A stretch of DNA of 64,000 bases. It comes from Candidatus Uhrbacteria bacterium (GTDB lineage Bacteria > Patescibacteriota > Patescibacteriia > UBA9934 > GWF2-40-263). The position numbers and the translations under genes are program-made. The notes below the pieces were generated by a model. The model saw only the letters and a program-made list of their open reading frames with translations, did no database searches and was not told where the DNA came from. Below, piece after piece: positions 20,331 through 57,794 of the stretch; the stretch's first letter is position 1; the number at the start of each line of letters is the position of its first letter. The DNA is taken from assembly GCA_016844925.1 (NCBI GenBank), contig JAERTI010000056.1:96533-160532 (forward strand), in the 5' to 3' direction.

Positions 20331-20345
20331 GTTGACTCGTTAGAA

Positions 20346-20372: not shown

Positions 20373-20389
20373 ACGCCAAAAACGTTATT

Positions 20390-35384: not shown

Positions 35385-35397
35385 GATGAGGTGGGAA

Positions 35398-36687: not shown

Positions 36688-36729
36688 TCAATCCTCCTTT
36701 AGCCTGCAAAACAGGCCAGAGCGACGCTT

Positions 36730-40129: not shown

Positions 40130-40134
40130 AGCGG

Positions 40135-40248
40135 TTATCCTTGTCGTTGCTTATGTTTAGGATTCTTACAAATAACAACCACCCGTCCTTTTCGGCGGAT
40201 GACTTTACAATCCCGACACATTTTTTTAGCTGATGCTCGTACTTTCAT
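40135..40248 (-). CDS. rpmJ: 50S ribosomal protein L36
   Basis: Hand-translated 37-aa [40 protein letters not shown] with the C-x2-C...C...H zinc ribbon; too short to appear in the ORF track. Confidence 0.8.
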
Positions 40249-40283
40249 AGTCGATGAACGTCACCGGTAACACAGCAACGTTT

Positions 40284-40502
40284 CTAGAATCGATACACAA
40301 CGCGACCCTTAGTTAGGTCATATGGGCTGATCTCCAGCTTCACCTCATCACCTGGAAGAATGCGGATACGAAACTTACGCATCTTTCCAGAGAGGTGGCC
40401 AATGATCTCTTGCCCGTTCTCTAATCTTATTTTGAAATTTGCGGCAGGTAGAAGTTCTTCTACCGTTCCCCTCATCTCAATGAAGTCTTTTGTTCCTTTT
40501 GC
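40284..40502 (-). CDS. infA: translation initiation factor IF-1
   Basis: [55 protein letters not shown] (S1-like OB-fold). Confidence 0.85.
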
Positions 40503-40648
40503 CATAATGAAATATGCGAGGATTCTAGCATTCACCCTAGAAAACAGCAAGGAACAAGAGTCTTCGAGGCGCCGGCATTGTACCGATGCGCTCTGCAGCT
40601 GTCAAGGATGTCACCGTGGATAAAACGACGCCTTATTTATAAGTTAAA

Positions 40649-42517: not shown

Positions 42518-42541
42518 ATCGGTCGCATTCTACACAGCACG

Positions 42542-44158
42542 TTATACCGAGTCTAGTGAATCAAGTGCTTCTGCTGGCCTTACTCTTCTAAGCACCTTTC
42601 GTTTAAGAGCCTCTAGCATTCGTTTCTGCTCATCAACTCTCAATAGTGAGCAGACAATCAAATAGACAAGTAGCCCTAGCCCACCGGCAAATAACCCTTG
42701 GGCGAGAACACCAAAGAATGTGTCGAGGGAAATCAAGGACAAAGCAACCGGCTTAAGCAACTGCATAACCAATGCAGCCGCAAGACCTGCAGCTGATAAT
42801 TTATAGATCGTTGTAAGAAGTTGTGATTCTGCAAGTGTGCCAAGACGTTGTCGCAGAATGATCCAGAGGAGGGTCATGTTGATGATCGCGGCAAGAGAAT
42901 AGGCCATGGCTAGTGCGATCACACTGAAACTTTCACCAAGTGCGAAAGCAGCAAGGATACCCACCAAAGCCGATACGGCTCCTGTTGTTAGTGGCGTTAC
43001 CGTGTCACGTAGGGCGTAAAACGCACGTGCAAGAAGAAAAATGAGCGCTTGTGGGATAAAGGTCAGCGCAAAGAATGCAAGCGTATCAGCTGTTGCAATC
43101 GTGGCTGCCCAATCAAATGCCCCTGCCCCGACAACCACCCGCACAATTTGAGCGCGAAGAATCAAGAACAACAGCATCATAGGGAGCATGAGATACAGAA
43201 CCTGTCTCACCGTTGAAATGAACAGCTCAACAAATTTGTCCATCTTTTCTGTTTCGATCGCCTCTGACAGCGAAGGAAAAACGGCAATCGCAAAGGACAC
43301 ACCAATGATTCCCACAGGGAAAAACTGAATGTTATATGCAAACTGAAAGACCGTCACAGAACCCACAGCCAGCGTGGAAGCCACAATCGTCAAGATGACA
43401 AACAGAACCTGGTTCACTGCCAGCCCGAGCGTTCGTGGTCCCATGAGCCCAAGCATGGTACGTGCATCTTTATCAAAGGGCCTTGGTCTAAATTGAAATT
43501 TGTAATCGGTCTGCGCAATACCCATGACCTGGGTAACAAGATGAAGCCCTGCTCCGAGAACTACCCCCCAAGCCAACCCCGTCAAGCCAAACGGTTCAAC
43601 AAAGTAGAGAGCACCAATGATGATTCCAACGTTATAGAAAATTGGTGCCAGGGAGTAGAGAAGAAACCGCTTAAGGCTTTGCAAGACGGATCCGTAAATC
43701 ATCGATACAGCCAGCACGACTTGTGCGAGGAACATGACTCGCATGAGCTCGGCAACGCGCACTTGTTTGTACTCAGCAAAACCTGGTGCAACCAGCTGTG
43801 CGAGCGGCTCGGCAAACAAAATGAGACCAATTGAAAGCAGAACCATGGCCCCACCAACCAGATGAAGCGTGTTATTCGTAAAGTCCCAAGCCTTTTGTCG
43901 ACGTGCTGCACGACTGTGGTGAGCGAGAAACAGCGGGATGAAACTCGCTGAGAGAGCCCCGACAACGATGAGGCTGAACAGGAGGTCGGGGATCTTAAAT
44001 GCCGCATAGTAAATATCAAGCGCATCCCCCGCTCCAAATTGACCCGCCAAAATTCGATCCCTTACGAGGCCAACAATTCGACTCACAAACGAAAGGACGC
44101 CCACGATGGTCGCGGCGCCAATAATCGATTTTGATTCTCTATGCAAGAACTTCAGCAT
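42542..44158 (-). CDS. murJ: lipid II flippase MurJ
   Basis: 538 aa MOP-family protein; N-terminus ...RIVGLVRDRILAGQFGAGDALDIYYAAFKIPD is typical of MurJ/MviN. Confidence 0.8.
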   Translation of the reverse strand: MLKFLHRESKSIIGAATIVGVLSFVSRIVGLVRDRILAGQFGAGDALDIYYAAFKIPDLLFSLIVVGALSASFIPLFLAHHSRAARRQKAWDFTNNTLHLVGGAMVLLSIGLILFAEPLAQLVAPGFAEYKQVRVAELMRVMFLAQVVLAVSMIYGSVLQSLKRFLLYSLAPIFYNVGIIIGALYFVEPFGLTGLAWGVVLGAGLHLVTQVMGIAQTDYKFQFRPRPFDKDARTMLGLMGPRTLGLAVNQVLFVILTIVASTLAVGSVTVFQFAYNIQFFPVGIIGVSFAIAVFPSLSEAIETEKMDKFVELFISTVRQVLYLMLPMMLLFLILRAQIVRVVVGAGAFDWAATIATADTLAFFALTFIPQALIFLLARAFYALRDTVTPLTTGAVSALVGILAAFALGESFSVIALAMAYSLAAIINMTLLWIILRQRLGTLAESQLLTTIYKLSAAGLAAALVMQLLKPVALSLISLDTFFGVLAQGLFAGGLGLLVYLIVCSLLRVDEQKRMLEALKRKVLRRVRPAEALDSLDSV

Positions 44159-44159
44159 G

Positions 44160-45476
44160 TCATCGCTGTAAGAGATGTGGAGCTCTGTGGGTTAAGATAA
44201 GAATACCACCTGAAACAATCATCATGAGAGCGAGGAAGAAAATAGCAACCAACACAATACGGTTCTGCAGAGAAAAGAACGGAACGAGCACTGTCGAAGT
44301 CTCAACATCGTGAATTCCCTCTTCATCCTCAACCGAAAGTGATACTTGGAATGCACCACTTGTGGCAAACGTATGTGTGACCTGAGGTTTTGATGACGTC
44401 ACACCATCACCAAAGTCCCAGCGATAAACAGCATCATCCTTGGCGTATGTGTAAGTTTTCCGAGTCTCGGTAGACGCAGAGTCTTCTTCGTCACCGTCCC
44501 CAATAGAACCACTTGAATATTTAACAGCCTCCTCAGGTGCTAGAAGTGTAAATGTATACGTATTCCAACTGTCACGTGTATAGGAAAACACCGCATTTGA
44601 TGAAATGACGATCTGATTGTCACTTACCGCTTGTCCTGAATCTAGAACAACCTCTAACTCCTCCACATCCTCCGTAGAAGAATCCTCGTCATCGGCAACC
44701 GTAACCGAATGAGTAACCTGCCCTGTTTCATCTTCCTGCGTCGTTTCGATTTCTTCGACAAGTTCAGCAATAATCTGATTGAACGCCTCTGATGTTTCTG
44801 CAGGCTCAGGCGCCACCTCCTCAACAACTTCCGGTTCTACAATAACTTCTTCAATGACTGTTCGCTCGCTGTCCGTAGGATAAGCGTCATCAGCGTCCGG
44901 CACACCATCACTATCAGTGTCAGCGTTTGTTGTATCTGTGCCGATCTCCACCTCAACCTCATCGCTCACTCCATCATTATCATCGTCTGTGTCACAGGCA
45001 TCACCGGCCCCATCTGAGTCTGAATCCAGCTGATCGGCATTCGGTGTCTGAGGACATGAGTCGTTGGCATCTGACACACCATCACGATCCGCGTCCTCAA
45101 TAGGGTCCATCGTGTTCGTGATCGTAAAGTTGTTTTCTAAATTTACATCGACTGGGTCCGTCCCTTCGATTCTCGCCATGATGTTAAAGCTCCCAGACGG
45201 CACGACAATATCAAGATAAACCTCCTCAGGGTTTCCTCCGGCCAGAACAGAAATAACCTGTGACTGCCCCAGCACAGATGCTCCTTTGTAAAAGTTCACA
45301 TACCCAGAGACGTCCTCATCCGCCTCGTTATGAATCGAAGCATAAATACGCACTGTGTCTCCCACAACAAGCGTATCGTCGGAAAAACGGACATCATTCT
45401 GACTGATACTTAAATCCGCTGTGGCATGTGCAGCCATCGGGAACAGCACTATGAGCAACGAGAGTAAATATTTCAT
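44160..45476 (-). CDS. cell-surface protein: signal peptide, CARDB-like domain, thrombospondin type-3 (Ca-binding D-rich) repeats, PKD domain, C-terminal TM anchor
   Basis: DADRDGVSDANDSCPQTPNADQLDSDSDGAGDACDTDDDNDGVSD (TSP3-like repeats); YRWDFGDGVTS...THTF (PKD domain); C-terminal hydrophobic helix followed by HRAPH. Confidence 0.6.
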   Translation of the reverse strand: MKYLLSLLIVLFPMAAHATADLSISQNDVRFSDDTLVVGDTVRIYASIHNEADEDVSGYVNFYKGASVLGQSQVISVLAGGNPEEVYLDIVVPSGSFNIMARIEGTDPVDVNLENNFTITNTMDPIEDADRDGVSDANDSCPQTPNADQLDSDSDGAGDACDTDDDNDGVSDEVEVEIGTDTTNADTDSDGVPDADDAYPTDSERTVIEEVIVEPEVVEEVAPEPAETSEAFNQIIAELVEEIETTQEDETGQVTHSVTVADDEDSSTEDVEELEVVLDSGQAVSDNQIVISSNAVFSYTRDSWNTYTFTLLAPEEAVKYSSGSIGDGDEEDSASTETRKTYTYAKDDAVYRWDFGDGVTSSKPQVTHTFATSGAFQVSLSVEDEEGIHDVETSTVLVPFFSLQNRIVLVAIFFLALMMIVSGGILILTHRAPHLLQR

Positions 45477-46027
45477 AAAACGATTGTATCACCTGATTGT
45501 AGCCAAAGTTCAGCTGCCTCATCTGCACTTATATGCAGCGCTGGGACAAATGTTGGGTGAATACGGACAACGACGTGATTAATGCTTCGAGCACCCGCCT
45601 GAACACTCACGACATCCCCTTGTGCCACCCCCTTAGCCTCCGCTGCACTTGATGAGAGGTGTAAGTGACGTATAGGCGTAATCGTACTCATTTTCGCCAC
45701 AACCTCCCCCGCAGGCCCTTTCAACGTCACGCTCGCGGATCTGTCTAAATCACCTGAAATGCGCAACGGTGCCTTTACCCCTATAGAATGCGCGTCACTC
45801 GCGGAAAGTTCAACCTGTGTCGACGCCCGCTCTGGACCCAATACACAGACTCGATCAAAAATCCCATCCGGTCCAATAACTTGCACACGCTGACGAGCCA
45901 CATATTGTCCTCGGTGTTCCAGTGTTCTTTCTGGCTCCAAAGCCTCGTTGCCAAAGAGGACTTTCTGATCCTCTGCAGACAGATGCACGTGTCGAAACTG
46001 CAATACCACTGGTATCTCCATATCCAT
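45473..46027 (-). CDS. pduL: PduL-type phosphate acyltransferase (EutD/Pta substitute)
   Basis: Two PTAC repeats, each with an RHxH motif (QFRHVHLSAEDQKVLFG; TPIRHLHLSS), plus a LGPxR...APLRISGDL middle segment matching Salmonella PduL. Confidence 0.7.
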   Translation of the reverse strand: MDMEIPVVLQFRHVHLSAEDQKVLFGNEALEPERTLEHRGQYVARQRVQVIGPDGIFDRVCVLGPERASTQVELSASDAHSIGVKAPLRISGDLDRSASVTLKGPAGEVVAKMSTITPIRHLHLSSSAAEAKGVAQGDVVSVQAGARSINHVVVRIHPTFVPALHISADEAAELWLQSGDTIVL

Positions 46028-46944
46028 TATGTCCGTGGTCGCTTAACGATCCAGAGTACTAGCACAAGCATTCCGATAAACCCTATTCCGTACAGGAGAT
46101 AGATAATCTCAGCAGAATCATTCCATGGTAGCCACGGGACATTCATTCCATAAAACCCAGCCAAGAGCGTTGGAAACATGAACGACACGGACATAATCGT
46201 CAGGAGCGTCACGATATCGTTTGTTCTGTGCGAAAGCAGAGCTTCATTTACATCGAACAGTCCATCAATGATCAACTTCAAGTTGTCGACTGAGAGCCAA
46301 ACCGTATCAAGAATGTCGTGCACATCATCAAGATACACATGCACATTCTCTGGAATAAAGGTTCTCTTCAAGTTAGAGAGCGATGTCAGCATTGATCGTT
46401 GTGGGTCAATCACATGTCGTAGGAACAACACGTTTCGGCGCACGTGAGCCAGATCGACTGTTAGTCGCTTATCATGACTCTTCTCAATCGCATCCTCAAG
46501 ACGATGCACCTCCTGTGTGAGCTGCGTCACAATCTGAATGGAGTCACGGAACAACTCAGCCAAGACCTTATGCATCGCAAATGCGGTTCCGGCTCCTAAA
46601 ATAGATGCACGCAGCTTCGTACTTCTTTGCACTCGCGCAAACAACTCCTCAAGTGCCGGGACTTCCACATGGCTCACCGTCACCAGAGCATCCTTGCTTA
46701 AAAAAATGTACACCTCTTCGCCGTACACATTCCCCTTCTCCTTATGAACGGTTGGAATATGAAAAACGAAGAACACATAATGCTTATAGGGGTCCATCTT
46801 GGAGATCGGCGTCTCCGCGCGAATGTCATCGTAATCCAGTGTATGAAACTTAAATGTCGCCTGGAGCCCCTCCAGGTCAGCCTCATTCACCTGGCTGATG
46901 TGATGCCACACCACCCCCTTTGACTCAACAACGTTTGATCCCAT
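46027..46944 (-). CDS. corA: CorA-family magnesium transporter
   Basis: C-terminal two TM helices with the GMN motif (FYGMNVPWLPW). Confidence 0.8.
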   Translation of the reverse strand: MGSNVVESKGVVWHHISQVNEADLEGLQATFKFHTLDYDDIRAETPISKMDPYKHYVFFVFHIPTVHKEKGNVYGEEVYIFLSKDALVTVSHVEVPALEELFARVQRSTKLRASILGAGTAFAMHKVLAELFRDSIQIVTQLTQEVHRLEDAIEKSHDKRLTVDLAHVRRNVLFLRHVIDPQRSMLTSLSNLKRTFIPENVHVYLDDVHDILDTVWLSVDNLKLIIDGLFDVNEALLSHRTNDIVTLLTIMSVSFMFPTLLAGFYGMNVPWLPWNDSAEIIYLLYGIGFIGMLVLVLWIVKRPRT

Positions 46945-46946
46945 AA

Positions 46947-47705
46947 TTATTCCTCCTGATGTTCACGCTTCTGCTCGTGCCCAAAGCGATACTTAAACTT
47001 GTCATGCTTAATCGGTCCCAGCAGCGCAAGGTGTAGCTCTGCCATCATGTACTTCATGGCGATTCTCATGCGACCGTCGCGATCCATTCGACGAATAGAG
47101 ACAGGGATCTTTGTTGACTTAAGAAAGCCAAACTTCCCTTTCCCTCTTGTCCGCTGTGCGTAGTCATGATCCTCACAAAACGTAATCTCTTCATCAAACC
47201 CACCAATTTCCTCGTGGAGCGATCTTCGTGCCAACATGCAAAAACCTGGAGCATGAGGAAAGACCGACCCCCATGCACGCGCGTAGGTGTTGTAAGCCTT
47301 GTGCATGAAGTGATCAATAAACGCGTCAGAGAGCGGAAACACATCACATGTCGCCAAATCCAACTTGCGCTCAAGCATCTCCCCCACAGCCTTCTCCAGA
47401 AACTCTGGATCCCGCAGCTCTACATCTGCATCAAGAAAAAGAATGATGTCTGTCGTTGCAGCCGCAGCTCCTGCATTGCGCCCTCGTGATACAGCCCCTC
47501 CCTCCACAACCGTCGCCCCATGTGCGAGCGCGATCTCTCGCGTTCGATCAACCGACCCTGCATCAGCTACAATAACCTCCGTTGGTTGGAGTGTTTGTCG
47601 TTTGATGGATTCGAATAGCCCTGGCAAGCAGGACTCTTCGTTCATGGCTGGAATGACAATCGTTAACATTACGTCCATTTTACCCTGTAGGGACTCCCTG
47701 GACAA
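46947..47705 (-). CDS. glycosyltransferase family 2
   Basis: LTIVIPAMNEE...VIVADAGSVDRT...LFLDADV. Confidence 0.7.
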   Translation of the reverse strand: MSRESLQGKMDVMLTIVIPAMNEESCLPGLFESIKRQTLQPTEVIVADAGSVDRTREIALAHGATVVEGGAVSRGRNAGAAAATTDIILFLDADVELRDPEFLEKAVGEMLERKLDLATCDVFPLSDAFIDHFMHKAYNTYARAWGSVFPHAPGFCMLARRSLHEEIGGFDEEITFCEDHDYAQRTRGKGKFGFLKSTKIPVSIRRMDRDGRMRIAMKYMMAELHLALLGPIKHDKFKYRFGHEQKREHQEE

Positions 47706-47736
47706 GAAGGCTTTTTCCCATTATCCTTGCGCCGTT

Positions 47737-48858
47737 ATGAAAACACTTTGCCCAAACAAGGAGGTCTGCGGTTCGTGTAGCTGGTCGCACATCCCCTATG
47801 ACAAGCAGCTCACACAAAAACTGTCAGACATCAACGGTTCCTTTGCGCTGAAAGAGGTCGATCTGCAAGTAGAGCAGATCGTGCCCTCACCTCGCACGGA
47901 GCACTACCGCAACCGCATGGACTTTGTCATCGACTTTGAAGGTCGCATGGGCATGCGCCAGAAGGGCAAGTGGTGGAAGGTAATCGACGGTCATACCTGT
48001 TTCCTCTCCGATGAAAAGATCGAGGAGCTATTTCATCTCGTACGAGACTGGTCCAAGACTGCCGGACTCAGCTACTTCGACCGGAAGGCTCATCACGGCC
48101 TCCTGCGCTACGCTGTCATCCGTTCTACAACGCTCGGACAAACTATGGTGAACATCGTCACAAGCGTACCTGAGGACGAGGCTCCCGTTCGCGCGGCCCT
48201 CGATAAACTTGCGCAGGACGACCGAATCTCAACACTCATCTGGTCTCAGAACTCCACCGTGAGCGACGTCAGCTTCGGTGATACCCTTGAGACGATCAAA
48301 GGTGAAGGTTTTATTGAGGAGCACATTCGCGGATCAAAGTTCCGCATCAGCCCAAACGCCTTTTTCCAAACCAACCCCCACGCCGCTGTCGCACTACTCG
48401 ACACCGTCGATGAGTTCTGTGGCGACCTCTCAGGCAAGACGCTGCTCGATCTCTACTGCGGCTCAGGCTTCTTCTCCATCGCCCTCTCTTCCCGCGCTGG
48501 TAAGACCATCGGCGTAGAGATGGTCCCTGAGGCCATCCGTGATGCGCGTATCAACGCAGAGCTCAACAATGCTCAGGTGGAGTATCATGATGCCAAGACG
48601 GAAGAATTTGACTGGAAGACCTACGGCGCAGACATCGTGATCCTTGACCCACCGCGCTCTGGCATGCATGATAAGGCGCTCGCGGACGTTATTGAAGCAA
48701 AGCCAGAGACGATCATCTACGTCTCGTGCAGTCCAAAAAACTTCGCTCGTGAAATGAAGCAACTTCAACAGCACTACCGCGTGGAGGCCATGAGGGCCAT
48801 CGATATGTTCCCTCACACCCCGCACGTAGAACTTGTAACTCGACTTGTGCGCATTTAA
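47737..48858 (+). CDS. 23S rRNA (uracil-C5)-methyltransferase, RlmD/RumA family
   Basis: N-terminal Fe-S Cys cluster (CPNKEVCGSCSWSH), SAM-binding motif (LLDLYCGSGFFS), catalytic (ILDPPRSG, VSCSP) motifs; the 47365 ORF is a 5' extension. Confidence 0.75.
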   Translation: MKTLCPNKEVCGSCSWSHIPYDKQLTQKLSDINGSFALKEVDLQVEQIVPSPRTEHYRNRMDFVIDFEGRMGMRQKGKWWKVIDGHTCFLSDEKIEELFHLVRDWSKTAGLSYFDRKAHHGLLRYAVIRSTTLGQTMVNIVTSVPEDEAPVRAALDKLAQDDRISTLIWSQNSTVSDVSFGDTLETIKGEGFIEEHIRGSKFRISPNAFFQTNPHAAVALLDTVDEFCGDLSGKTLLDLYCGSGFFSIALSSRAGKTIGVEMVPEAIRDARINAELNNAQVEYHDAKTEEFDWKTYGADIVILDPPRSGMHDKALADVIEAKPETIIYVSCSPKNFAREMKQLQQHYRVEAMRAIDMFPHTPHVELVTRLVRI

Positions 48859-48863
48859 GCGCC

Positions 48864-49736
48864 TTGATTACCTCAATTATGCCAAATACAAAATCAGGTT
48901 TCGTCGTCATGATCGGTCGTTCCAACGTTGGAAAGTCCACCCTCATGAACTCCATCATTGGTTCAAAGATCGCCATCACGACTCCAAAACCACAAACAAC
49001 CCGCCTCCCGATTCAGGGCATCCTGACACGCGGAGAGAGCCAGATCGTCTTCGTCGACACTCCAGGTGTCCTCAAAGGAGCCAAAGACGCGCTTAGCAAG
49101 AAGCTTCTCAGCGCTGTGAAAGAATCTCTCGAGGACGTTGACGTCATTGTGTACGTTGTAGACCCAACTCGACAGATCGGTCAGGAAGAACGTGAAGTTA
49201 TGCGTCTCATCGAGTCCATCGACAAGCCATCTATCCTGGTCATCAACAAGATGGATCTGGAGCGTAAACCGTATCTCGACTTTTACCGAGACCTCTCTGA
49301 GAACTACGACGAAACGGTCGAACTCTCAGCTCTTCGAGGAACGCATATTGGAACGCTTATCGAAAAACTCCAGGATCTCGTCCCAGAAGGTGAGTTCTAC
49401 TACCCAGAGGGACAGCTCACCAACATGCCAAACAAGTACTGGATGGCAGAGCTCATCCGAGAGAAACTTTTCCTACGTCTTCGCCAAGAACTCCCCTACT
49501 CCACGCACGTGGAAGTCAGCGAGATCGAGGAGCGCAAGGACGGAACCATGTACGTCAAAGGAAGCATCTTCACCACCACCGAGCGCTACAAGCGCATGAT
49601 CATCGGTGCTGGTGGACGCGGTATCAAGGAAATCGGTCAGAGTGTCCGCAAGGAGCTCACAGCCGTACTGCAGACGAAAGTATTCGTTGACCTACGCGTA
49701 GAGGTAGACCCACATTGGATGAAACGATTCGTTTAA
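48864..49736 (+). CDS. era: GTPase Era
   Basis: G1 motif (GRSNVGKST), G3 (DTPG), G4 (NKMD); C-terminal KH domain. Confidence 0.85.
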   Translation: MITSIMPNTKSGFVVMIGRSNVGKSTLMNSIIGSKIAITTPKPQTTRLPIQGILTRGESQIVFVDTPGVLKGAKDALSKKLLSAVKESLEDVDVIVYVVDPTRQIGQEEREVMRLIESIDKPSILVINKMDLERKPYLDFYRDLSENYDETVELSALRGTHIGTLIEKLQDLVPEGEFYYPEGQLTNMPNKYWMAELIREKLFLRLRQELPYSTHVEVSEIEERKDGTMYVKGSIFTTTERYKRMIIGAGGRGIKEIGQSVRKELTAVLQTKVFVDLRVEVDPHWMKRFV

Positions 49737-49746
49737 AACAAAACCT

Positions 49747-49786
49747 AAAAACCGGCTGTCACCATTGACATAGGCCGGTTTTTTGT
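49747..49786 (+). terminator. rho-independent terminator after era; a TTGACA lies in its loop
   Basis: aaaaccggc...gccggtttt stem followed by TTTTGTTTAT; loop TTGACA (49765-49770) plus a 17-bp spacer plus TATCTT (49788-49793) forms a candidate promoter for the next gene. Confidence 0.55.
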
Positions 49787-49817
49787 TTATCTTCGCATGT
49801 CCACACTAGGAGGAACT

Positions 49818-50747
49818 ATGGACTACAGAGCGTTCCTGCGCAGACACGACGCTGCGCTCAAGACGGCAGGACTCTGGGCGAGGGCCTGGACACTGCAGCG
49901 ACTGCTCGAAAGCTGCCTGCTCGTCGTCAAGATGGATGCAACCTACTACACACGTGAGTGGGCCATCAAGCACCGACAGATGCTGGTCGATGCTCTCTGC
50001 GAAGTCTGTGTGACGGCGCAGATCCCGCTGCCGGACATCGAGCCGGACATGGTCAATGGCCTGTTGCCCACGGACCAAGAACTGAAGCCCGGCTCCCGCA
50101 AACGACTCGAGATCGTCCAGACCTTGCGCGGTCGACTGCGTGATCACGGGAGTCTGGGAGCGGCAGAGCTCCACGGCTTTGCCGATGTGCTCAGCGCCTT
50201 CGAGTTCAACGACTTCAGCGGCCCCAACATGGTCCAGATGCTCGCCGCAATCAACGCTCGCCTGCTCAAGGAGGGGCTCGAGCCCCTCCGTGGCCCCTAC
50301 AAGGGCAATGTGATCTGCCCGGGCGCTGGCACAGAGGGACCTCTGCGCACGGTGCTGATCGTGGACGACAGTCTGGAGGCCTTGATCAAGACGTGGATCG
50401 CCGTCGCAGGTTGGCCCACTCTCGAGCCTCACAAGTACCTGTACGAACCCTCGCAGAGAACCCTGCTGGAGGGAGAGGCAAGCGAGACTCGGCTTGCCGA
50501 GGTGGCCGCGCAAATCCTGAAGTGCCAGCCGGACGTCGTCATCATGGACCACGGCCTGGGCGACATCCACGGAGACAAGCTCATCGAGACCCTTCGGGCG
50601 AGCGGTGGCAAGGACATCATCTTCGTCGCCAATACCGGCGGTGACATCGACGCGTTCAGATCCGTCCGATTGCGCGAGAACTTCGACAAGGGCAAGAACC
50701 TCTCTGCCCTCGCGTCGGCGCTCCATCGAGCGAACCGACGCCGCTAG
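49818..50747 (+). CDS. orphan response-regulator-like protein: novel N-terminal domain with a C-terminal receiver (REC) domain (GC-rich island)
   Basis: AGGAGG ribosome-binding site 5 nt before the ATG at 49818; C-terminus has VLIVDD (beta1), DVVIMDHGLGDIHG (beta3 with phospho-acceptor Asp), ANTGG (beta4 Thr) and FDKGK (beta5 Lys); the N-terminal 175 aa show no recognisable motif. Confidence 0.5.
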   Translation: MDYRAFLRRHDAALKTAGLWARAWTLQRLLESCLLVVKMDATYYTREWAIKHRQMLVDALCEVCVTAQIPLPDIEPDMVNGLLPTDQELKPGSRKRLEIVQTLRGRLRDHGSLGAAELHGFADVLSAFEFNDFSGPNMVQMLAAINARLLKEGLEPLRGPYKGNVICPGAGTEGPLRTVLIVDDSLEALIKTWIAVAGWPTLEPHKYLYEPSQRTLLEGEASETRLAEVAAQILKCQPDVVIMDHGLGDIHGDKLIETLRASGGKDIIFVANTGGDIDAFRSVRLRENFDKGKNLSALASALHRANRRR

Positions 50748-50769
50748 AGCCTCTCAGGCTCTTTTTTTC
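50746..50769 (+). terminator. rho-independent terminator
   Basis: agagcc-tctca-ggctct hairpin followed by TTTTTTT. Confidence 0.5.
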
Positions 50770-50772
50770 TTG

Positions 50773-50814
50773 CACGCTAATCCATTGACAAACCGTCATT
50801 TTTTGATTAGCGTG
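50773..50814. promoter_or_regulatory. 10-bp perfect inverted repeat (candidate operator) enclosing a promoter -35 box
   Basis: CACGCTAATC-N22-GATTAGCGTG; TTGACA (50785-50790) plus 17 bp plus TAGCGT lie inside it; 52 nt upstream of the gene at 50866. Confidence 0.35.
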
Positions 50815-50865
50815 TCGTGTGGCGAATGGATTGCCGCACCCGAAACTCCTAGGCCTGGAGGGCCT

Positions 50866-51513
50866 ATGTTTACCCTCATGCTCGTGCCCATGTTCTCGCC
50901 GGATGGCGAAGAAGGCGGGCGGCGTGAGAAGCGGAAGGTTCCCCGAAAGAACCCCCGCATCAAGAGCAAGCTCGTCTGCGAGAAGGACCCCAAGAGCGGA
51001 AAGACTACCGGCACAGCCGTGCTGAACATGCACCAGTGCACCGGAGACCTGGCTCCGCAGCGGTTCGAAAGCGGACGTCTGTACAAGCAACTCCTCTTCA
51101 GCATCACCGAGGACCACGGCGTCCCTGCATTCACCAACCTGACCCCCAAGGGCATGGAGGCGTTCGTCGCGGGCAACAGTCGCCCCATCCAGATCGTGGA
51201 AGTCATCGCCGTCCCCGACTTCGATGGCGGAGAGCTCGAAGTCACGATGTACTCCACCCCGCCCATCAGCTGGGGTGGCAAGGACCTCTCCGACAAGCTG
51301 ATGGCTACGGGCCTGCTCATGCTCATGGGCTACGAGGAGATCCCGCTGGGTGAAGACGCCGAGGCCAGCATGGACCTGGGTCTGCCCGAGCTCGACGAAG
51401 GCTTCATCGACCTGCTCGACAGCACCATGGGCTACCACTCCCCCGAGATGGACATGGAACTCCTGGAGGACGAGAACTCCGACGATTGGCTCTTCGAGGC
51501 CGAAGGCGACTAG
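50866..51513 (+). CDS. hypothetical acidic protein (GC-rich island)
   Basis: 215 aa; basic N-terminus (RREKRKVPRKNPRIKSK) and a very acidic C-terminal third ending ...DDWLFEAEGD; the 50605 ORF is a 5' extension. Confidence 0.4.
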   Translation: MFTLMLVPMFSPDGEEGGRREKRKVPRKNPRIKSKLVCEKDPKSGKTTGTAVLNMHQCTGDLAPQRFESGRLYKQLLFSITEDHGVPAFTNLTPKGMEAFVAGNSRPIQIVEVIAVPDFDGGELEVTMYSTPPISWGGKDLSDKLMATGLLMLMGYEEIPLGEDAEASMDLGLPELDEGFIDLLDSTMGYHSPEMDMELLEDENSDDWLFEAEGD

Positions 51514-51522
51514 CTCAAACGA

Positions 51523-51574
51523 AAAAGCAGCTTTACGCTGCCCCGCACCCTTACGTGGGTGCTATTTATTTTGT
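51523..51574. terminator. back-to-back terminators for convergent genes
   Basis: gcagc-tttac-gctgc preceded by AAAAA serves the minus strand; gcaccc-ttacgt-gggtgc followed by TATTTATTTT serves the plus strand. Confidence 0.5.
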
Positions 51575-52504
51575 TCGAATTTCTGTGACCTCGTAGCCAG
51601 CGAACCCTTCCACAAACCCATCAGGGGTAAGGGTCTCAAGATTTCCCTGGGCAAACGGCGTGAGCTGCACCTCCAGCACGAGCGGGTTCTCTGCATTTGC
51701 CAAAATACGCAACGACCCGAACCGATTCTTGGCTTCGATCACTCTTACGCTACTAACCACGCCATCAATCGTCACCGTGTACTCACCCCAATCACCAGAG
51801 GCTTCGAGGTCCAAGAGATCTTCTTCCACTTCCTCTTCAGCCCCGTCGTCGGTATCTCCAGGGATAAGTGTGGCGAGCTGATCGATATAACTCTGCACCT
51901 GATCTGCCACATCCTCAATCTGAGCAAGTGACTCATCAAACAGCCCAAAGCTGAGCGTGGTCTTGCGTGTATTTACAAGCTCGTCGTACTGCGCTCGAGA
52001 GAGCCAGATGAGTGTCTCTTCAACCTCACCAGAGTCCCCTTCCGTCCAAAGACTTGGGAGCAGCAGGCGCTCCCCATCATCGAGAGCCGACGTGGAAATC
52101 GTGCCCTCGACAACAACATCTTGATACTCCACTTCTGGAGCATCAGGAATCTCTTCTCCGATCGGTGTCTCGGCATACTGAGCCTCATGAGCCTCACGTG
52201 CAGCCGTCGACGCTTCCGTCTCTTCCTGCGTTGTAATTGACCAGGAAAGATCTACACGCTCCCCAGCAGTCCACGACTCAAGCTTGACCACACGCTCATC
52301 TGATTCTGCGCCAAGCCAATCGACAATCTGCCCGCCGACCCCTAAGACTGTCGGCTGCAATACAACTTCTGCTCCAGAAGCAAAAGAAAGCGACTGAGCC
52401 GCTTCCTCTGCTGTTAACGTTGAGGTGACCTGCGCTACGCACCCTGCGCCAAATAAAACCAGCGCTGAGAGCCCGAGTGCAACTCGCCCCATGGTTAAGA
52501 TCAT
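51566..52504 (-). CDS. hypothetical secreted/lipoprotein-like protein
   Basis: Start taken at MILTMGRVALGLSALVLFGAGC (signal with a Cys; weak lipobox); the ORF extends upstream to 52702 but that stretch would overlap the thioredoxin-like gene. Confidence 0.4.
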   Translation of the reverse strand: MILTMGRVALGLSALVLFGAGCVAQVTSTLTAEEAAQSLSFASGAEVVLQPTVLGVGGQIVDWLGAESDERVVKLESWTAGERVDLSWSITTQEETEASTAAREAHEAQYAETPIGEEIPDAPEVEYQDVVVEGTISTSALDDGERLLLPSLWTEGDSGEVEETLIWLSRAQYDELVNTRKTTLSFGLFDESLAQIEDVADQVQSYIDQLATLIPGDTDDGAEEEVEEDLLDLEASGDWGEYTVTIDGVVSSVRVIEAKNRFGSLRILANAENPLVLEVQLTPFAQGNLETLTPDGFVEGFAGYEVTEIRTK

Positions 52505-52505
52505 A

Positions 52506-52772
52506 CTATTCAGAGATGTCTTCTCCAGCTGCCCACTTCGCGAGTCGCTCCTCGGAAGTCGCGCCACAGATCCACATCTTAGATTCATCATTATAGAAAA
52601 ACGGAACACCGCCGCACTTACCGCCATCAATTTCCTCAAGCTTTTTGGCATTGTCATCGTTATGCCATGTCTCAAGCTTCTCAATCGCGGTGCCGTCCTC
52701 AATCATTCTATCCACAATGGGAAGCATTTGATGACAGTGTGGGCATTCCTCTCCGTAAAAAAAGTAGAGCAT
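52506..52772 (-). CDS. thioredoxin/glutaredoxin-like small protein
   Basis: CPHC active-site motif (GEECPHCHQMLPIV) and GGVPFF further along. Confidence 0.6.
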   Translation of the reverse strand: MLYFFYGEECPHCHQMLPIVDRMIEDGTAIEKLETWHNDDNAKKLEEIDGGKCGGVPFFYNDESKMWICGATSEERLAKWAAGEDISE

Positions 52773-52810
52773 AATCTCGAATAGTATGAGTTATCTGCTA
52801 CAATTCTATC

Positions 52811-53386
52811 ATGCTTATTCGCCTCCTCACAGCCACCGTTTTCCTCGCCATCATGGCGCTGCTTATTCTGCAGCGTTTTTCCATGCCACCTGAATTCCCT
52901 GTCATCGATGCATCCACAGGCGAAACATTCTCTCGGGGCGAAATCATCACCACTGACGATGACTACCTCGCTCTCACAATCGGCGAAAACAACATCTATC
53001 TTGCTGAAAATACGGTTCTTGAGCTCGACAGAATCTACGAGGACGAACTGGTCGTCACCCTCACAAAAGGACGCCTACTCGTAAGCGCGCAGGGTGACAC
53101 TCCCTTTGTGATCGAAACGAATCACACAGACCACCTCGTCCATAAGGGTACGGCAAGTTTCATCAACTACGACTGGCTTGAGACCATCCACGTGATCCCG
53201 CTAGATGGCTCTGTCCAAACAACCATCCGAGGAACCAACGAATTCCTCCTCACCCCAACCCCAATTTCCATCCACGAGACCGCTCCCGTCACCTACGAGC
53301 CCCTCGAGGTAAGCCTCGACGCCGGCGCAAGCGCCCCCTTCTACACCTGGACTGGCGTTTTGACAGAAAACGCGCCCACAGAGTAA
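52811..53386 (+). CDS. hypothetical membrane-anchored protein (FecR-like?)
   Basis: N-terminal TM helix then a beta-rich domain; weak resemblance to FecR-type sensor domains. Confidence 0.3.
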   Translation: MLIRLLTATVFLAIMALLILQRFSMPPEFPVIDASTGETFSRGEIITTDDDYLALTIGENNIYLAENTVLELDRIYEDELVVTLTKGRLLVSAQGDTPFVIETNHTDHLVHKGTASFINYDWLETIHVIPLDGSVQTTIRGTNEFLLTPTPISIHETAPVTYEPLEVSLDAGASAPFYTWTGVLTENAPTE

Positions 53387-53420
53387 CCTCCCGTCGCGAA
53401 TCGTCGAAAGGAGACAAAAA

Positions 53421-54308
53421 GTGATCGATATCAGACAAGTGGAGACAGCCCAGCAGGCGTTTGACCTGCTCTCAGACGGAGAGCCCAAGATCATCAGCCG
53501 ATACGGCGCTCCGGAACTGATCCGACGTGCGGGCCTCGTGAAGGCCGGCGCATTCGACTTCGACGGCACGCTGATCACCAAGGCCCAGTGGGACGAGGTG
53601 GCCAAGCTGATGCCAGAAGATCTCCGACGGCGAGATCGAGAGTTCATCGAGTGGTACTTGGAACACCGAACCGACCAAGACCTGCCCGATACCACCCTCG
53701 ACGACCCAGACTGGTTCCACAGCCACCTGCTCGACTCCAACCGGACCGCAGCAGAGGGTGGATCTGTGGCACAGTTCGCCCACTTCTGTGAACGCTCCGG
53801 CATCACGCTGGGGAACCTGATCGAGACGGGCATGGAGCTCCCTCCCCGGGACGGTGCCATCGAGCTTCTCAAGCTCTTTGTCCTGTACGTCATCATCAGC
53901 TACGGCATCGAACACGTGATCCAGGGCTTCGCCAAGGCGCACGGCCTAGATCCGCACATCGTGGCCAGTCGCTTCAAGTTCCGCGAGCCGGACATGTTGG
54001 TCATGGGTCACGAATACAACGTCGTGGTCAGCTCCACCAAGCCGCTGGCAGCCAACCGGTTCCGCACCCTCACGGGCATCGCTGACGAAGAAATGCTCGT
54101 CGTCGGCGATTCGGTCGTGGACGTAGAGATGATGCACCCAGGAGGGCTCAACATCCTCGTCATGCCCTGCAAGGAAGCCAACAAGAAGCTCACGGCCTTC
54201 CGCAACGGCAACCTCGCTGGCATGTGGCCCAAGCTCACGGCCATCCTCTACAGCGACTCGCTCATGCCGCTAGTCGAGCTCATCGAGCTCGGACGCAGCC
54301 GCTCGTAG
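53421..54308 (+). CDS. HAD-superfamily hydrolase (GC-rich island)
   Basis: HAD motif I FDFDGTLI, motif IV VVGDSVVDVEM; GTG start after an AAAGGAG ribosome-binding site; GC about 62%. Confidence 0.6.
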   Translation: MIDIRQVETAQQAFDLLSDGEPKIISRYGAPELIRRAGLVKAGAFDFDGTLITKAQWDEVAKLMPEDLRRRDREFIEWYLEHRTDQDLPDTTLDDPDWFHSHLLDSNRTAAEGGSVAQFAHFCERSGITLGNLIETGMELPPRDGAIELLKLFVLYVIISYGIEHVIQGFAKAHGLDPHIVASRFKFREPDMLVMGHEYNVVVSSTKPLAANRFRTLTGIADEEMLVVGDSVVDVEMMHPGGLNILVMPCKEANKKLTAFRNGNLAGMWPKLTAILYSDSLMPLVELIELGRSRS

Positions 54309-54318
54309 CGCAACGCAA

Positions 54319-54347
54319 AACCGCCCCATACGGGAGCGGCTTTTTTC
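54319..54347. terminator. rho-independent terminator (probably serves both flanking convergent genes)
   Basis: ccgcccc-atac-gggagcgg hairpin followed by CTTTTTTC. Confidence 0.5.
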
Positions 54348-54349
54348 TA

Positions 54350-54796
54350 TTAGTCTTCGACCTCTTCCACCATTACCGGTGTCGGAGCTTCCTTTCTTTC
54401 CCATTTATGGAGCTCTCTCTGATCCTGAAGATGTGCCCGTTCTTCGGCATTCTTCCTTGCGTGCTCAATGGCTGTCTCAGGATCAACCCCTAAATCCATA
54501 AGGCCTGCAGCACTCAGTTTGGGAATATCTGTATCAAGATACTCTTCTTTTTCAGGATCAACCCCTTGCCCTTCATCAAGCACTCCCTTTTCGATCTTCT
54601 CTAGCAGCGGGTTTCCATACTCTTCCATATACGCCTTCGCAGCAGCCCTCTCTTCTGGGGTTGCCACAAACTCTTCCGGCTGCTTTTGTTGATCATAAAT
54701 AGGCGGACCAGCAATATCGCTTGTGATCTCCTTTTCCATTGATTCATCGATCGGCTGAGGCTGTGGCTCTCGCCGTAATTCTGGTGATGTAGGCAT
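54350..54796 (-). CDS. hypothetical acidic protein
   Basis: 148 aa; E/D-rich, no TM; lies downstream of mnmA. Confidence 0.3.
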   Translation of the reverse strand: MPTSPELRREPQPQPIDESMEKEITSDIAGPPIYDQQKQPEEFVATPEERAAAKAYMEEYGNPLLEKIEKGVLDEGQGVDPEKEEYLDTDIPKLSAAGLMDLGVDPETAIEHARKNAEERAHLQDQRELHKWERKEAPTPVMVEEVED

Positions 54797-54817
54797 AGGA
54801 CTTAAGTATAACGGATC

Positions 54818-55900
54818 TTAATCGATGATCCCACCACCGAGCACCTCTTCGTCGTCGTAGAACACAATCGACTGACCAGGTGTCACGGCACGTTGTGGCT
54901 CGGTAAAACTCACTGTAACGACATCACCCTCAATCGACTCAATCGTGCAGTCCTGCAGTGCTTGTCGATAGCGAATCCGTGCACGACATGCATGAGGCAA
55001 GGTCTTGGGTTCACTAAACCAGTTCAACTGTCGCGCGGTGAGACTTGATCGGAACAGCGCAGGATGAAAGTTACTCGCCACGACCACTTCCTTTGTCTCT
55101 GGCCGTTTCTCCACCACATACCAAGGCTCTCCACCTCCGATATTCAATCCATGACGCTGACCGATTGTGTAAAACGCCACCCCCTCATGGCTGCCGATCA
55201 CTTCCCCATCGACCGTGACGACATTTCCAGGATCCTTCGGTAAGCGCTGCTGCAAAAACTCTTTCATGTTCACCTCCCCAACAAAACAGATCCCCGTTGA
55301 GTCCTTCTTCTCCGCCACATCCAGTCCAAGCTCACGAGCCTTCTCCCGCACCTGAGGCTTCTCCATGTCTCCGATCGGAAAGATGACACGAGAGAGCACT
55401 TCCGGCGGCATGGCCCAGAGAAAGTAGGTCTGATCTTTGTTCTTGTCGTGGCCGGCCAGCAACTTACCGTCTTCAACTCGGGCGTAATGCCCTGTGGCAA
55501 CAAACTCGCAGCCGAGGCGATCTGCCTCGCGCATGAACTTATCGAACTTGATGAACTTATTGCACAGCACATCAGGATTCGGAGTGCGACCCATACGAGA
55601 CTCTTCAAACAAGTTTTCGACAACCTTCTCTCGGTAGTCTGCCTCAAAATCAAATGTGACAAACGGAATCCCTAGCTTTGCTGCCACACGCGCCGCATCT
55701 CGACGCTCCTCCTTCCATCCACACTCCTCAAACTCCTCCCCCACATCAGCTTCATTGGTGGACCTAGGGGCACACACAGAGCCGCTCCAATTCTTCATAA
55801 ATGCTCCCACCACCTCATATCCCTGCTCAACCAAAAGCGCCGCGGAAACACTAGAATCCACGCCTCCTGAGAGTCCTACAAGTACTTTTGGTTTTGACAT
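54818..55900 (-). CDS. mnmA: tRNA-specific 2-thiouridylase MnmA
   Basis: PP-loop motif SGGVDSSV, catalytic Cys residues; 360 aa. Confidence 0.9.
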   Translation of the reverse strand: MSKPKVLVGLSGGVDSSVSAALLVEQGYEVVGAFMKNWSGSVCAPRSTNEADVGEEFEECGWKEERRDAARVAAKLGIPFVTFDFEADYREKVVENLFEESRMGRTPNPDVLCNKFIKFDKFMREADRLGCEFVATGHYARVEDGKLLAGHDKNKDQTYFLWAMPPEVLSRVIFPIGDMEKPQVREKARELGLDVAEKKDSTGICFVGEVNMKEFLQQRLPKDPGNVVTVDGEVIGSHEGVAFYTIGQRHGLNIGGGEPWYVVEKRPETKEVVVASNFHPALFRSSLTARQLNWFSEPKTLPHACRARIRYRQALQDCTIESIEGDVVTVSFTEPQRAVTPGQSIVFYDDEEVLGGGIID

Positions 55901-55952
55901 AGAGGCGAATATAGCTTATTTTTTGGCCATCCTCAAGCCAAGGAGTACGAGG

Positions 55953-56435
55953 ATGTTGATGAGAGAATTTCACGTTCTGGTCATCGAGGACAACGCCGCC
56001 GAAGAGAAGCGCCTCATGGCGTTCCTGGCAGAGCACATGCCGGGAGATCGGAAGCTGCGCATCCACTGGCACCGCACCGTCGAGAGCGGACTGCGCTTCC
56101 TGATCGGGTGCGGATACGACATCCGGATGATCTTCTGCCACGACGTCCAGCCCGCCAGGGTGGCCACGGCCGAGGAGCGCAAGACCCTGTCGCTCGTCAC
56201 CGAGCGTCCCGAGCGCACCGGCGAGGTCTGGCGCCTCATGACCTGCATGAGCGCCCTGCAGATGGACCGCCCCCTCTTGATCGGTCTGTGCGACAGGATC
56301 AAGGGCACGCGAGACCTGCAGAAGCCCTTGGACTACCACGGTCCGGTCGGCTTCTACCTCGCCCGCCACAAGACCGAACCCTGGTCCTGCGTCAGCGACG
56401 CCGTGACGGAACTCACCGTCAGCCGCGCCGCCTGA
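55953..56435 (+). CDS. small hypothetical protein, possibly a divergent single-domain receiver (CheY-like) protein (GC-rich island)
   Basis: AAGGAG ribosome-binding site 7 nt upstream; VLVIEDNAAEEKRLMAFL (beta1/alpha1-like) and DIRMIFCHDVQP (beta3-like); GC about 63%; the 55656 ORF is a 5' extension. Confidence 0.4.
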   Translation: MLMREFHVLVIEDNAAEEKRLMAFLAEHMPGDRKLRIHWHRTVESGLRFLIGCGYDIRMIFCHDVQPARVATAEERKTLSLVTERPERTGEVWRLMTCMSALQMDRPLLIGLCDRIKGTRDLQKPLDYHGPVGFYLARHKTEPWSCVSDAVTELTVSRAA

Positions 56436-56444
56436 CTCTCAACT

Positions 56445-56491
56445 CCCGCCCTATCGAGCTCAGCTCGACACGCAAGGGCGGTTTTATTTTT
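56445..56491 (+). terminator. rho-independent terminator
   Basis: cccgccct...agggcgg stem (loop contains the nested palindrome tcgagctcagctcga) followed by TTTTATTTTT. Confidence 0.5.
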
Positions 56492-57794
56492 GACAACCAT
56501 CAAAGAGTTCGGGAAGCAAGCTCACATCCTCACGGAGAATAAAGAAATCTGTAAACTGAAGTTTCTCGTTATATTTTTGCAACAAATCTGAGTAGTCGAA
56601 GATCGGCACAAGTCCCTTACCCATGAGCATCTGCTTTTTCACAAAGATCGGCTGCGCTCGGCCCTCCTCTCCCAAATGCGTCAACTCACGCGCAACGGAA
56701 TGCGTAAACCAACGTGCTCCCATGAGCTCACAACGCTTTTTCAAGTCCTCAAGATCCTTCATGTCCTGCGGGTTGCGATCATGCAAGCGCATCACACGCT
56801 TAGCAGGAAGCCGGTTCATCAAATGATGCGACCAGTAGTTCTTCTCGTCCTGCGCGGCATCAAACAATTTTTCAATCACGACCCCATCGCGAAGTGCAAC
56901 ATACGCATAGGGATCCGTCGGAATCTGCAAATCAATCTCTCCAGTCTCGATCGCTTGTTCAAGATAGTGCGTGAATCCTGCCTTTGTTTTGTGGAAGTAC
57001 ACCTGGTCCACCATGTGATAGCGCGCTAGGAGCAAATCCTCAAATGCACGCACTCCATTCTCCGAGATCGTGAACACAAGCTCATCGTCTCGCTGCGCCA
57101 CCCCCATAGAGGAAATCAACCAGTCGATATCATACTGCCCGTAAGCGACGCCGCAGAAGTAACTATCGCGCAGCAAATAGTCCATACGGTCTGCATCGAC
57201 CTCACCCGAGATCAGCCCCTTGAGCACACGCTGCAAGCTTGGGATCTTCTCGATTCGTTTGTAGAACCACGCAGACGGCTTAATGGATCCATGGACAAGC
57301 GAAGCGATGTCCTGTGCCAAGTTTCGATCAAGCGCTCCTTCATCAGCCATCGTCTGGATGAGCAGTACGCTGTAATCCTCGTGCACAGCCTGTCGCGACT
57401 CTTTCTCTCGCCACCACCCCCAATCAAGCGGCAGGTCTTCCAGCTGCGGAAATACAATCTCAGAAGCATGGGAGAATGGCCCATGACCAATGTCGTGGAG
57501 CAAACCAGCAAGCCTAACGCGCATTCTAAGGGCCTCAATATCGTCTCCTGAGAGCTTTTCTTTGAAAATAGATGAACTACTCATGACACGACCAAACAAA
57601 CGACCAGCCACATGCATAGCGCCAATGGCGTGAGAGAACCGGTCATGCACGGCCCCTGGGTACACATACGACTGCAGGAAGCCTAGTTGTGAGATAAACC
57701 GCAGCCGTTGAAAAAACGGGTGGTCAATAATCCCCCGCTCAAACTCGCTAAAAGCGATGCGTTTATGAATTGGATCTCGAAGTTCAAAGCTCAT
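56484..57794 (-). CDS. HD-domain dNTP triphosphohydrolase (dGTPase-like)
   Basis: HD motif (VHDRFSHAIGAMHVA...LLHDIGHGPFSH); 436 aa with Dgt-family architecture. Confidence 0.75.
   Translation of the reverse strand: MSFELRDPIHKRIAFSEFERGIIDHPFFQRLRFISQLGFLQSYVYPGAVHDRFSHAIGAMHVAGRLFGRVMSSSSIFKEKLSGDDIEALRMRVRLAGLLHDIGHGPFSHASEIVFPQLEDLPLDWGWWREKESRQAVHEDYSVLLIQTMADEGALDRNLAQDIASLVHGSIKPSAWFYKRIEKIPSLQRVLKGLISGEVDADRMDYLLRDSYFCGVAYGQYDIDWLISSMGVAQRDDELVFTISENGVRAFEDLLLARYHMVDQVYFHKTKAGFTHYLEQAIETGEIDLQIPTDPYAYVALRDGVVIEKLFDAAQDEKNYWSHHLMNRLPAKRVMRLHDRNPQDMKDLEDLKKRCELMGARWFTHSVARELTHLGEEGRAQPIFVKKQMLMGKGLVPIFDYSDLLQKYNEKLQFTDFFILREDVSLLPELFDGCQK

Follow-up and report, generated by a model that had tools for sequence, protein, structure and literature searches.

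Two GC-rich accessory genes downstream of era in a ‘Candidatus Uhrbacteria’ genome, one of them a putative orphan response regulator with a C-terminal receiver domain

Features of the locus downstream of era

A stretch of 64,000 nucleotides of the ‘Candidatus Uhrbacteria’ assembly GCA_016844925.1 (contig JAERTI010000056.1, positions 96,533 to 160,532 of the forward strand; hereafter the window, whose own positions are used throughout) was analysed around the region 49747-51575, in which two open reading frames (ORFs) of the plus strand, gene 1 and gene 2, are located 3' of era (Table 1). The reading that we favour, with a probability of about 0.6, is that these are two separately transcribed and unrelated accessory genes, of which gene 1 encodes an orphan, atypical response regulator, while gene 2 is an ORFan and not an obligate partner of gene 1.

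Table 1. Coordinates of the features at the era locus (window positions).
Feature	Position	Strand	Details
era (GTPase Era), conserved upstream core gene	48864-49736	+	Pfam MMR_HSR1 1e-27 plus KH_2; syntenic in L001-L007
era terminator, hairpin and T-run	49747-49785	+	arms 49747-49756 / 49774-49783, perfect 10-nt inverted repeat
Direct repeat copy 1, left indel boundary	49763-49785	+	CATTGACA-N8-TTTTTTG
Gene 1 promoter	49765-49793	+	TTGACA (49765-49770)-17-TATCTT (49788-49793); promoter scan 10/12
1,020-bp indel	49786-50805	+	absent from L001-L006; blastn vs L001-L006, junction alignment A4
Gene 1 coding sequence (309 aa, P0001)	49818-50747	+	ribosome-binding site (RBS) AGGAGG 49808-49813; within ORF 49797-50747
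Gene 1 N-terminal all-helical domain, aa 1-165	49818-50312	+	AlphaFold2 (AF2): 8 helices, predicted local distance difference test (pLDDT) 73-97 per 10-residue block
Gene 1 C-terminal receiver (REC), aa 176-309	50343-50744	+	predicted phospho-acceptor D244 = 50547-50549
Gene 1 intrinsic terminator	50746-50769	+	7-bp stem and T7, hairpin 50746-50762; terminator scan; fold -9.5 kcal/mol
Left palindrome arm	50773-50782	.	CACGCTAATC; only in the gene 1-bearing haplotype, absent from L001-L006
Direct repeat copy 2, right indel boundary	50783-50805	+	CATTGACA-N8-TTTTTTG; -35 and spacer of gene 2 promoter
Right palindrome arm	50805-50814	.	GATTAGCGTG; conserved in gene 1-less relatives
Gene 2 5' untranslated region (5'UTR) hairpins	50817-50865	+	50817-50839 and 50851-50865, the latter including RBS GGAGG 50857-50861
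Gene 2 coding sequence (215 aa, P0002), lineage-specific ORFan	50866-51513	+
Back-to-back terminators, common to gene 2 and the convergent gene	51524-51562	both	terminator scan; fold z = -4.2
Convergent gene downstream of gene 2	51566-52393	-

The ATG at 49818 is the likely start of gene 1, since it lies 4 nt past the AGGAGG and the product equals the database protein P0001. As a preliminary description made from the sequence alone had proposed, the gene 1 promoter is embedded in the era terminator: it occupies the loop and the 3' arm, the 17-nt loop (fold of the hairpin -20.2 kcal/mol, z = -4.2) containing the -35 element. The codon-position GC pattern of both genes is consistent with coding on the plus strand.

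Gene 1 and its protein family

A word-indexed search returned gene 1 alone, but its candidature as an ORFan was rejected when an exhaustive HMMER scan of 1.84 billion representatives revealed a family: 121 homologues reached E<=1e-3, and of these 98 reached E<=1e-10. Read as cytoplasmic proteins, the members are mostly about 300 aa long, and their alignments span the full length with 25-35% identity; short variants of about 220 aa, lacking the middle of the N-terminal domain, also exist (alignment A2). The few named members are annotated as ‘hypothetical protein’ of Candidatus Paceibacterota or Patescibacteria. In an alignment of 73 members the positions D183, D244, G198, G252, N272 and G275 are invariant. 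The invariant or near-invariant positions of the receiver comprise D183, D184, G198, M243, D244, G252, N272, T273, G274, G275, G284, N288, K291 and G292, and those of the N-terminal domain K21, A23, D25, A27, L30, R53, P72, E75, N146, L149, P156 and R158. Cys61 is present in 61 members and Cys64 in 48.

The C-terminal domain of gene 1 contains the receiver motifs VLIVDD, VVIMDHGLGDIHG, ANTGG and FDKGK. Pfam Response_reg is matched at E<=0.01 by 37 of the 73 members (best 1.3e-6), and the family profile retrieves only receiver chains from PDB, namely, CheY (8e-5), DivK (1.7e-4) and Spo0F; D244 is aligned to the MD of CheY and DivK, T273 is in register, and K291 is aligned to the Lys of DivK. 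The residues of the pocket are conserved almost without exception (D183 73/73, D184 72/73, D244 73/73, T273 71/73 plus two Ser, K291 72/73), and all five active-site residues are retained in gene 1. The AF2 model built on the 73-sequence alignment (pLDDT 92.0, predicted template modelling score 0.87; the gene 1 single sequence gave pLDDT 38.6) shows a (beta-alpha)5 domain of flavodoxin-like fold, with the acidic pair after beta1, Asp after beta3, Thr/Ser after beta4 and Lys after beta5. Profile and model together identify the C-terminal domain as a true receiver of the CheY type whose predicted pocket is complete: D183/D184 would bind Mg2+ and D244 would serve as the acceptor beside T273 and K291.

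No non-REC family of Pfam or NCBIfam is shared among the 73 members, three single-member chance matches in Pfam at E<=0.01 excepted, and none of the members carries a DNA-binding family (helix-turn-helix, HTH, or winged-helix) of either database. The profile of the N-terminal domain has no match in PDB (best E 0.036). These domains are mostly acidic, with a median isoelectric point (pI) of 5.6 in the family and 6.4 in gene 1. By sequence comparison the N-terminal domain, described beforehand as novel, is indeed a domain so far without counterpart in Pfam or NCBIfam, in a family that appears to be undescribed.

Seven other neighbourhoods of family members were examined (L087, L090, L093, L096, L170, L171 and L172), and no histidine kinase, gene 2 homologue or conserved partner was found in them; a TrmB-type regulator is close by in two of the seven. 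The family genes are GC-richer than their flanks at three of four loci. In L170 (48-1013) and L090 (4922-5887) a 321-aa protein without Pfam match, with the motif FNFDHHHGVVRDATMST, is encoded divergently from the family gene. This neighbour is common to these two related genomes only and is 82% identical between them, whereas the family proteins there are just 48% identical; the family is therefore fast-evolving. Directly 3' of the family member P0014, L087 (7067-7735) encodes a 222-aa protein with a weak REC-like domain (E 3.7e-8 against the family hidden Markov model, HMM). In L090 (5924-5955) a 14-bp perfect palindrome, GGTGAAAAGTCAAC-N4-GTTGACTTTTCACC, covers the -35 (TTGACT) of the family member's own TTGACT-17-TATAAT promoter, at a place where no co-directional gene upstream would need a terminator; a comparable palindrome beside the family genes was not found in L087, L093 and L096.

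A phage or defence origin was considered and rejected: PADLOC gave 0 matches, the sole PHROG match was weak (E 0.035) and lay over the receiver of gene 1, and BFVD gave weak REC matches only. Family members are encoded on none of the 71 IMG/VR contigs with an FVANTGG-coding motif.

The kinase and HTH genes said to be lacking nearby are indeed lacking in the window ORFs that were scanned. No HisKA, HATPase_c, Hpt or second REC domain was found in the scanned ORFs of at least 150 aa across the window, no HTH is encoded near gene 1 or gene 2, and the precomputed Pfam annotation of the related contig L001 contains no kinase (HisKA/HATPase_c). In genomes of the candidate phyla radiation (CPR) there are on average 0.29 kinases for every 100 genes, and kinases are lacking altogether from 19% of the CPR metagenome-assembled genomes (MAGs) (PMC10805038); because of this scarcity, the absence of a kinase among about 60 genes carries little weight.

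Gene 2

The product of gene 2 is basic at its N-terminus (charge +6.5 over aa 1-50) and very acidic at its C-terminus (-20 over aa 161-215, ending in DDWLFEAEGD), and its gene is preceded by a terminator, all as first described. No homologues beyond P0003, a member of its 90% cluster, were found in the 5.8-billion-protein index, genome_contigs, viral_contigs, metagenome_contigs, phages, plasmids or PDB, and no match was obtained in Pfam, NCBIfam, PHROGs or PADLOC. Compared with its counterpart in L001, gene 2 differs by 18 synonymous and 18 non-synonymous changes (ratio of non-synonymous to synonymous rates, dN/dS, 0.27; binomial p = 2.8e-4 against neutrality), and an in-frame indel is present in its tail. 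Gene 2 is therefore a real, fast-evolving coding gene.

The leader of gene 2 is structured (fold of 50765-50865 -39.9 kcal/mol, z = -4.75). Both of its hairpins also form in L001 (9953-10000), where one stem position is G-C in one lineage and G.U in the other, and the second pairs the Shine-Dalgarno GGAGG. Rfam gave no match in the intergenic regions.

Two further ideas about gene 2 were discarded. Its derivation from the gene 1 receiver as a degenerate paralogue, raised by in-frame DNA repeats and similar spacing, was rejected by BLASTP and by an hhalign probability of 0.1-0.2%. A recent transfer, raised by its synonymous divergence (dS) of 0.14, is unsupported, as dS differs from gene to gene between the two lineages: over window 39898-57579 against L001 it ranges from 0 (the 88-aa gene 52509-52772) to 1.16 (GT2, 46950-47570) and equals 0.85 for era. 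This variation suggests a recombination mosaic.

Locus history and the 1,020-bp indel

P0003 is encoded on seven metagenome contigs of close relatives, six of which were read (L001-L006). Their gene order is that of the window: PduL-like (Pfam PTAC), CorA, GT2, tRNA U5-methyltransferase (PF05958), era, gene 2 and the convergent gene, on to MnmA. None of the seven contigs carries gene 1, and gene 2 there stands directly 3' of era. Among species-representative genomes the best match to era (67% identity) is in L007, a ‘Candidatus Uhrbacteria’ MAG, in which era is followed by a 47-nt shared terminator and then by the convergent gene (41% identical to that of the window, E 2e-72); neither gene 1 nor gene 2 is present at the era locus of L007. 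The two genes are thus, on this comparison, lineage-specific GC-rich additions between era and the convergent gene. Of the laterally acquired GC-rich island first proposed, lineage specificity and high GC content stand, and a foreign origin is plausible.

Gene 1 lies on an indel of 1,020 bp bounded by a duplicated promoter core, since L001 9915-9955 aligns by blastn both to window 49760-49800 and to 50780-50820. The window contains the direct repeat just twice, where 0.25 occurrences would be expected, and the spacing of the two copies is exactly 1,020 bp. Between these boundaries are gene 1, its -10 and 5'UTR, its terminator, the left palindrome arm and the second -35 with spacer. With the promoter core duplicated at the ends of the indel, gene 1 and gene 2 each possess their own TTGACA-17-TAnnnT promoter, and the -10 and 5'UTR of gene 1 look like a shortened copy of those of gene 2 (alignment A4). 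In L001 the hairpin of the era terminator is kept with a different stem (CCGCCC/GGGCGG) and an identical loop ATTGACA, and GATTAGCGTG follows directly.

The palindrome at the gene 2 promoter

The 10-bp inverted repeat pointed out in the preliminary description is perfect, with arms 22 nt apart, but its placement on the -35 of gene 2 was not borne out: the -35 (50785-50790) is flanked by the two arms, and the element covered by the right arm is the -10 (TAGCGT, 50808-50813). In a read-through RNA the palindrome would form an 11-bp hairpin, and in DNA the arms bracket the gene 2 promoter. Because L001 retains GATTAGCGTG and lacks CACGCTAATC, the right arm is the older -10 region of gene 2, and the left arm belongs to the indel only. 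The palindrome, as hairpin or operator, probably protects the promoter of gene 2 against transcription reading through from gene 1, or links this promoter to some regulator; no cognate binder is evident. The search for additional copies that had been advised revealed no other exact match to the arm across the window, and none beyond chance. Perfect inverted repeats with arms of at least 10 nt number eight in the window against 2.0 +/- 1.4 in simulations, and five of the eight are A/T-run terminators.

Composition and other genes of the window

The GC content of gene 1 and gene 2 is 0.627 and 0.620, respectively, against 0.509 in the remainder of the window; GC >= 0.60 is reached in just 3.3% of 900-nt segments. 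At third codon positions (GC3) the values are 0.80 and 0.85, and 0.44-0.65 in neighbour genes. High GC3 is also found in a HAD-like gene (53421-54308) and in ORF 55953-56435. Further GC-rich islands (GC >= 0.60, or GC3 0.81-0.90) are located at about 1100-2000, 35300-36700, 53200-54400 and 55953-56435; apart from the HAD-like gene, they coincide with ORFs without Pfam match, namely, 1039-1779/1366-1974, 35398-36687 (429 aa) and 55953-56435 (160 aa, dN/dS 0.42). GC-rich accessory genes are dispersed across this genome of 51% GC. Since the HAD-like gene and ORF 55953-56435 have the same high GC3 and other islands are GC-rich too, the shared composition does not tie gene 1 to gene 2.

The window also contains housekeeping genes typical of small genomes, among them those for MreB/MreC, a penicillin-binding transpeptidase, GreA, ClpB, Def/Fmt, RpoA, a MurJ-type flippase and MnmA. 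The HAD-like hydrolase is 46% identical to that in the same syntenic place of L001 (12617-13495), in contrast to 95-99% identity of the flanking genes, a difference suggestive of allele or gene replacement. A perfect CIRCE element, the HrcA operator consensus TTAGCACTC-N9-GAGTGCTAA, is present at 20346-20372 (region 20332-20372; chance expectation 0.02) and overlaps the -10 of a TTGACT-17-TATACT promoter directly upstream of the ClpB gene (ORF 20366-23053). Another perfect 10-nt palindrome, ATTTCGGAAA-N6-TTTCCGAAAT, which is not terminator-like, is located at 61396-61421, near the 5' end of the gene for a TrwB-like type IV coupling protein (58570-61458, minus strand).

Interpretation

According to the reading that we favour, the D244 residue of gene 1 would be phosphorylated by an unlinked histidine kinase or by a small phosphodonor such as acetyl phosphate, phosphorylation would alter the hold of the receiver on the helical N-terminal domain, and the released domain, by analogy with the logic of PatA-type proteins and PhyR, might act through protein-protein contacts and not through DNA binding or catalysis. 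Gene 2 would have been present at the era locus independently of gene 1, and the palindrome would combine the -10 region that gene 2 already had with an inverted copy confined to the indel.

Several observations weigh against this reading. Gene 1 alone scores 19.4 bits against Pfam Response_reg (PF00072; E 0.0012), under the gathering score of 30.2 and over profile positions 32-84 only, so the C-terminal receiver recognised in the preliminary description is firm only at the level of family profile and structure. Gene 1 proper was observed in one genome only, and it deviates at near-invariant positions of the family (K21A, D25T, A27Q, F57V, P159G, D160P and G284R), departures with which it could be decaying or altered in function. 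In whole-protein structure searches REC matches occupy every list and the N-terminal domain was not isolated, so this domain may have a known fold; its conserved polar residues K21, D25, R53, E75, N146 and R158, together with Cys61/Cys64, could form a catalytic or redox site. Finally, with two haplotypes and an outgroup that has neither gene, the indel may be either an insertion or a deletion.

The two genes had previously been taken for one compact, laterally acquired signalling module, in which a receiver-gated effector is combined with an operator-controlled acidic partner. Their adjacency on one strand, the atypical GC3 of both and the left palindrome arm, found at the gene 2 promoter only where gene 1 exists, agree with this; but a search of other genomes for the pair found gene 2 without gene 1 on the seven contigs, relatives of gene 1 without a gene 2 homologue in the seven neighbourhoods, no further gene 2 homologue in the collections searched, and neither gene in L007. 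The proteins are unrelated, gene 2 is set apart from gene 1 by a terminator and by a promoter of its own, and the high GC3 is common to other genes and islands of the window. We consider the module refuted because the genes do not co-occur elsewhere, and leave it only a very small probability. It is also improbable that gene 1 is a one-protein transcription factor whose helical domain binds DNA, with the 10-N22-10 palindrome as its operator and gene 2 under its control. The palindrome arm and gene 1 came or went jointly, the L090 palindrome lies over the promoter of a family member, and a palindromic operator is used elsewhere in the same genome, as CIRCE at the clpB promoter. The acidity of the N-terminal domains, the lack of DNA-binding families and of a PDB sequence match, the absence of a comparable palindrome by the family genes in three of the loci and the lack of any repeat of the arm elsewhere in the window all speak against it. 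A wider form of this idea, to which we likewise give little credence, is that the whole family is a CPR-specific one-protein phospho-switch with a new all-helical output domain that might recognise promoter palindromes (window 50773-50814; L090 5924-5955). If it were true, the gene 1 indel would have joined a regulator with half of its operator, rewiring the resident gene 2 promoter, and, histidine kinases being scarce or absent in these organisms, acetyl phosphate might drive the receiver, or the receiver might work without phosphorylation.

Gene 1 might, in an explanation that we judge unlikely, be a xenologue in decay or without function, with the palindrome as a functionless mutational by-product of the rearrangement, for example a template-switch inverted duplication. 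This would fit the confinement of gene 1 to a single genome, the lowest full-length family HMM score among the members scored, the seven substituted near-invariant positions and the fast evolution of the family. It is opposed by an intact frame of 309 codons with a strong RBS, a promoter and a terminator, by the retention of all five receiver active-site residues and by the coding-type codon-position GC pattern. An SGNH/GDSL-type hydrolase as the C-terminal domain is scarcely credible: a single-sequence phmmer search against PDB paired LIVDDSLEA with LILGDSLSAG of thioesterase I (TesA; E 0.1, residues 174-249), but this weak similarity vanishes at the level of profile and structure, residue conservation points away from it, and the catalytic Ser (GDS), Gly, Asn and Asp-x-x-His blocks were not found in the domain. 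The candidate was rejected.

Two unrelated accessory genes, one of them for an orphan regulator, do not overturn the current understanding: fusions of receivers to uncharacterised domains are common, as are orphan regulators. CPR/Patescibacteria encode few signalling proteins in their very small genomes, so that a conserved, fast-evolving family in which a receiver is coupled to a new domain offers a rare handle on sensing and response in these episymbionts. The locus also offers a fine-scale view of the entry of accessory genes into a CPR core region, with a promoter in a terminator loop, a duplicated promoter core and a palindrome at the junction.

Comparison with known systems

In most receivers the conserved Lys is followed by Pro. 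The gene 1 family has Lys then Gly at this place, and its invariant motifs AGWP, N272-T-G-G275 and N288..K-G are family-specific. In contrast to CheY-like receivers (PF00072), the receiver of the family is C-terminal and has no adjacent kinase, its sequence similarity is weak, and an insertion of about 15 residues is present between beta1 and beta3. The features of a classical two-component pair, a kinase beside the regulator, were found neither in the ORFs of the window nor in L001 nor at the seven loci of relatives, and no HTH or winged-helix output of the DNA-binding response regulators (OmpR, NarL, LytTR and others) was found in gene 1.

PhyR, an alphaproteobacterial anti-anti-sigma response regulator, consists of a helical N-terminal domain followed by a receiver, and PhyR and CheV are precedents for a C-terminal receiver. 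No N-terminal sigma-factor-like domain and no nepR/ecfG partners nearby were found for gene 1. PhyR acts by partner switching and not by DNA binding (PMC5964349).

The C-terminal position of the receiver, noted as unusual in the preliminary description, is unusual but also has precedents in the PatA-type PATAN-REC proteins (PixG, PixE and PatA), in which the N-terminal domain is proposed to become accessible for protein-protein interaction once the receiver is phosphorylated (PMC11181946). The PatA-type proteins and gene 1 are alike in that the output domain comes first and the receiver last; they differ in that no PATAN match was found in the 73 members, the N-terminal domain of the family is purely helical, and there is no chemotaxis-like operon.

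Gene 1 resembles orphan response regulators in having no cognate kinase near it, at this and at seven other loci. Unlike orphan single-gene regulators, it belongs to a two-domain family that is conserved and, to date, known solely from Patescibacteria-type contigs.

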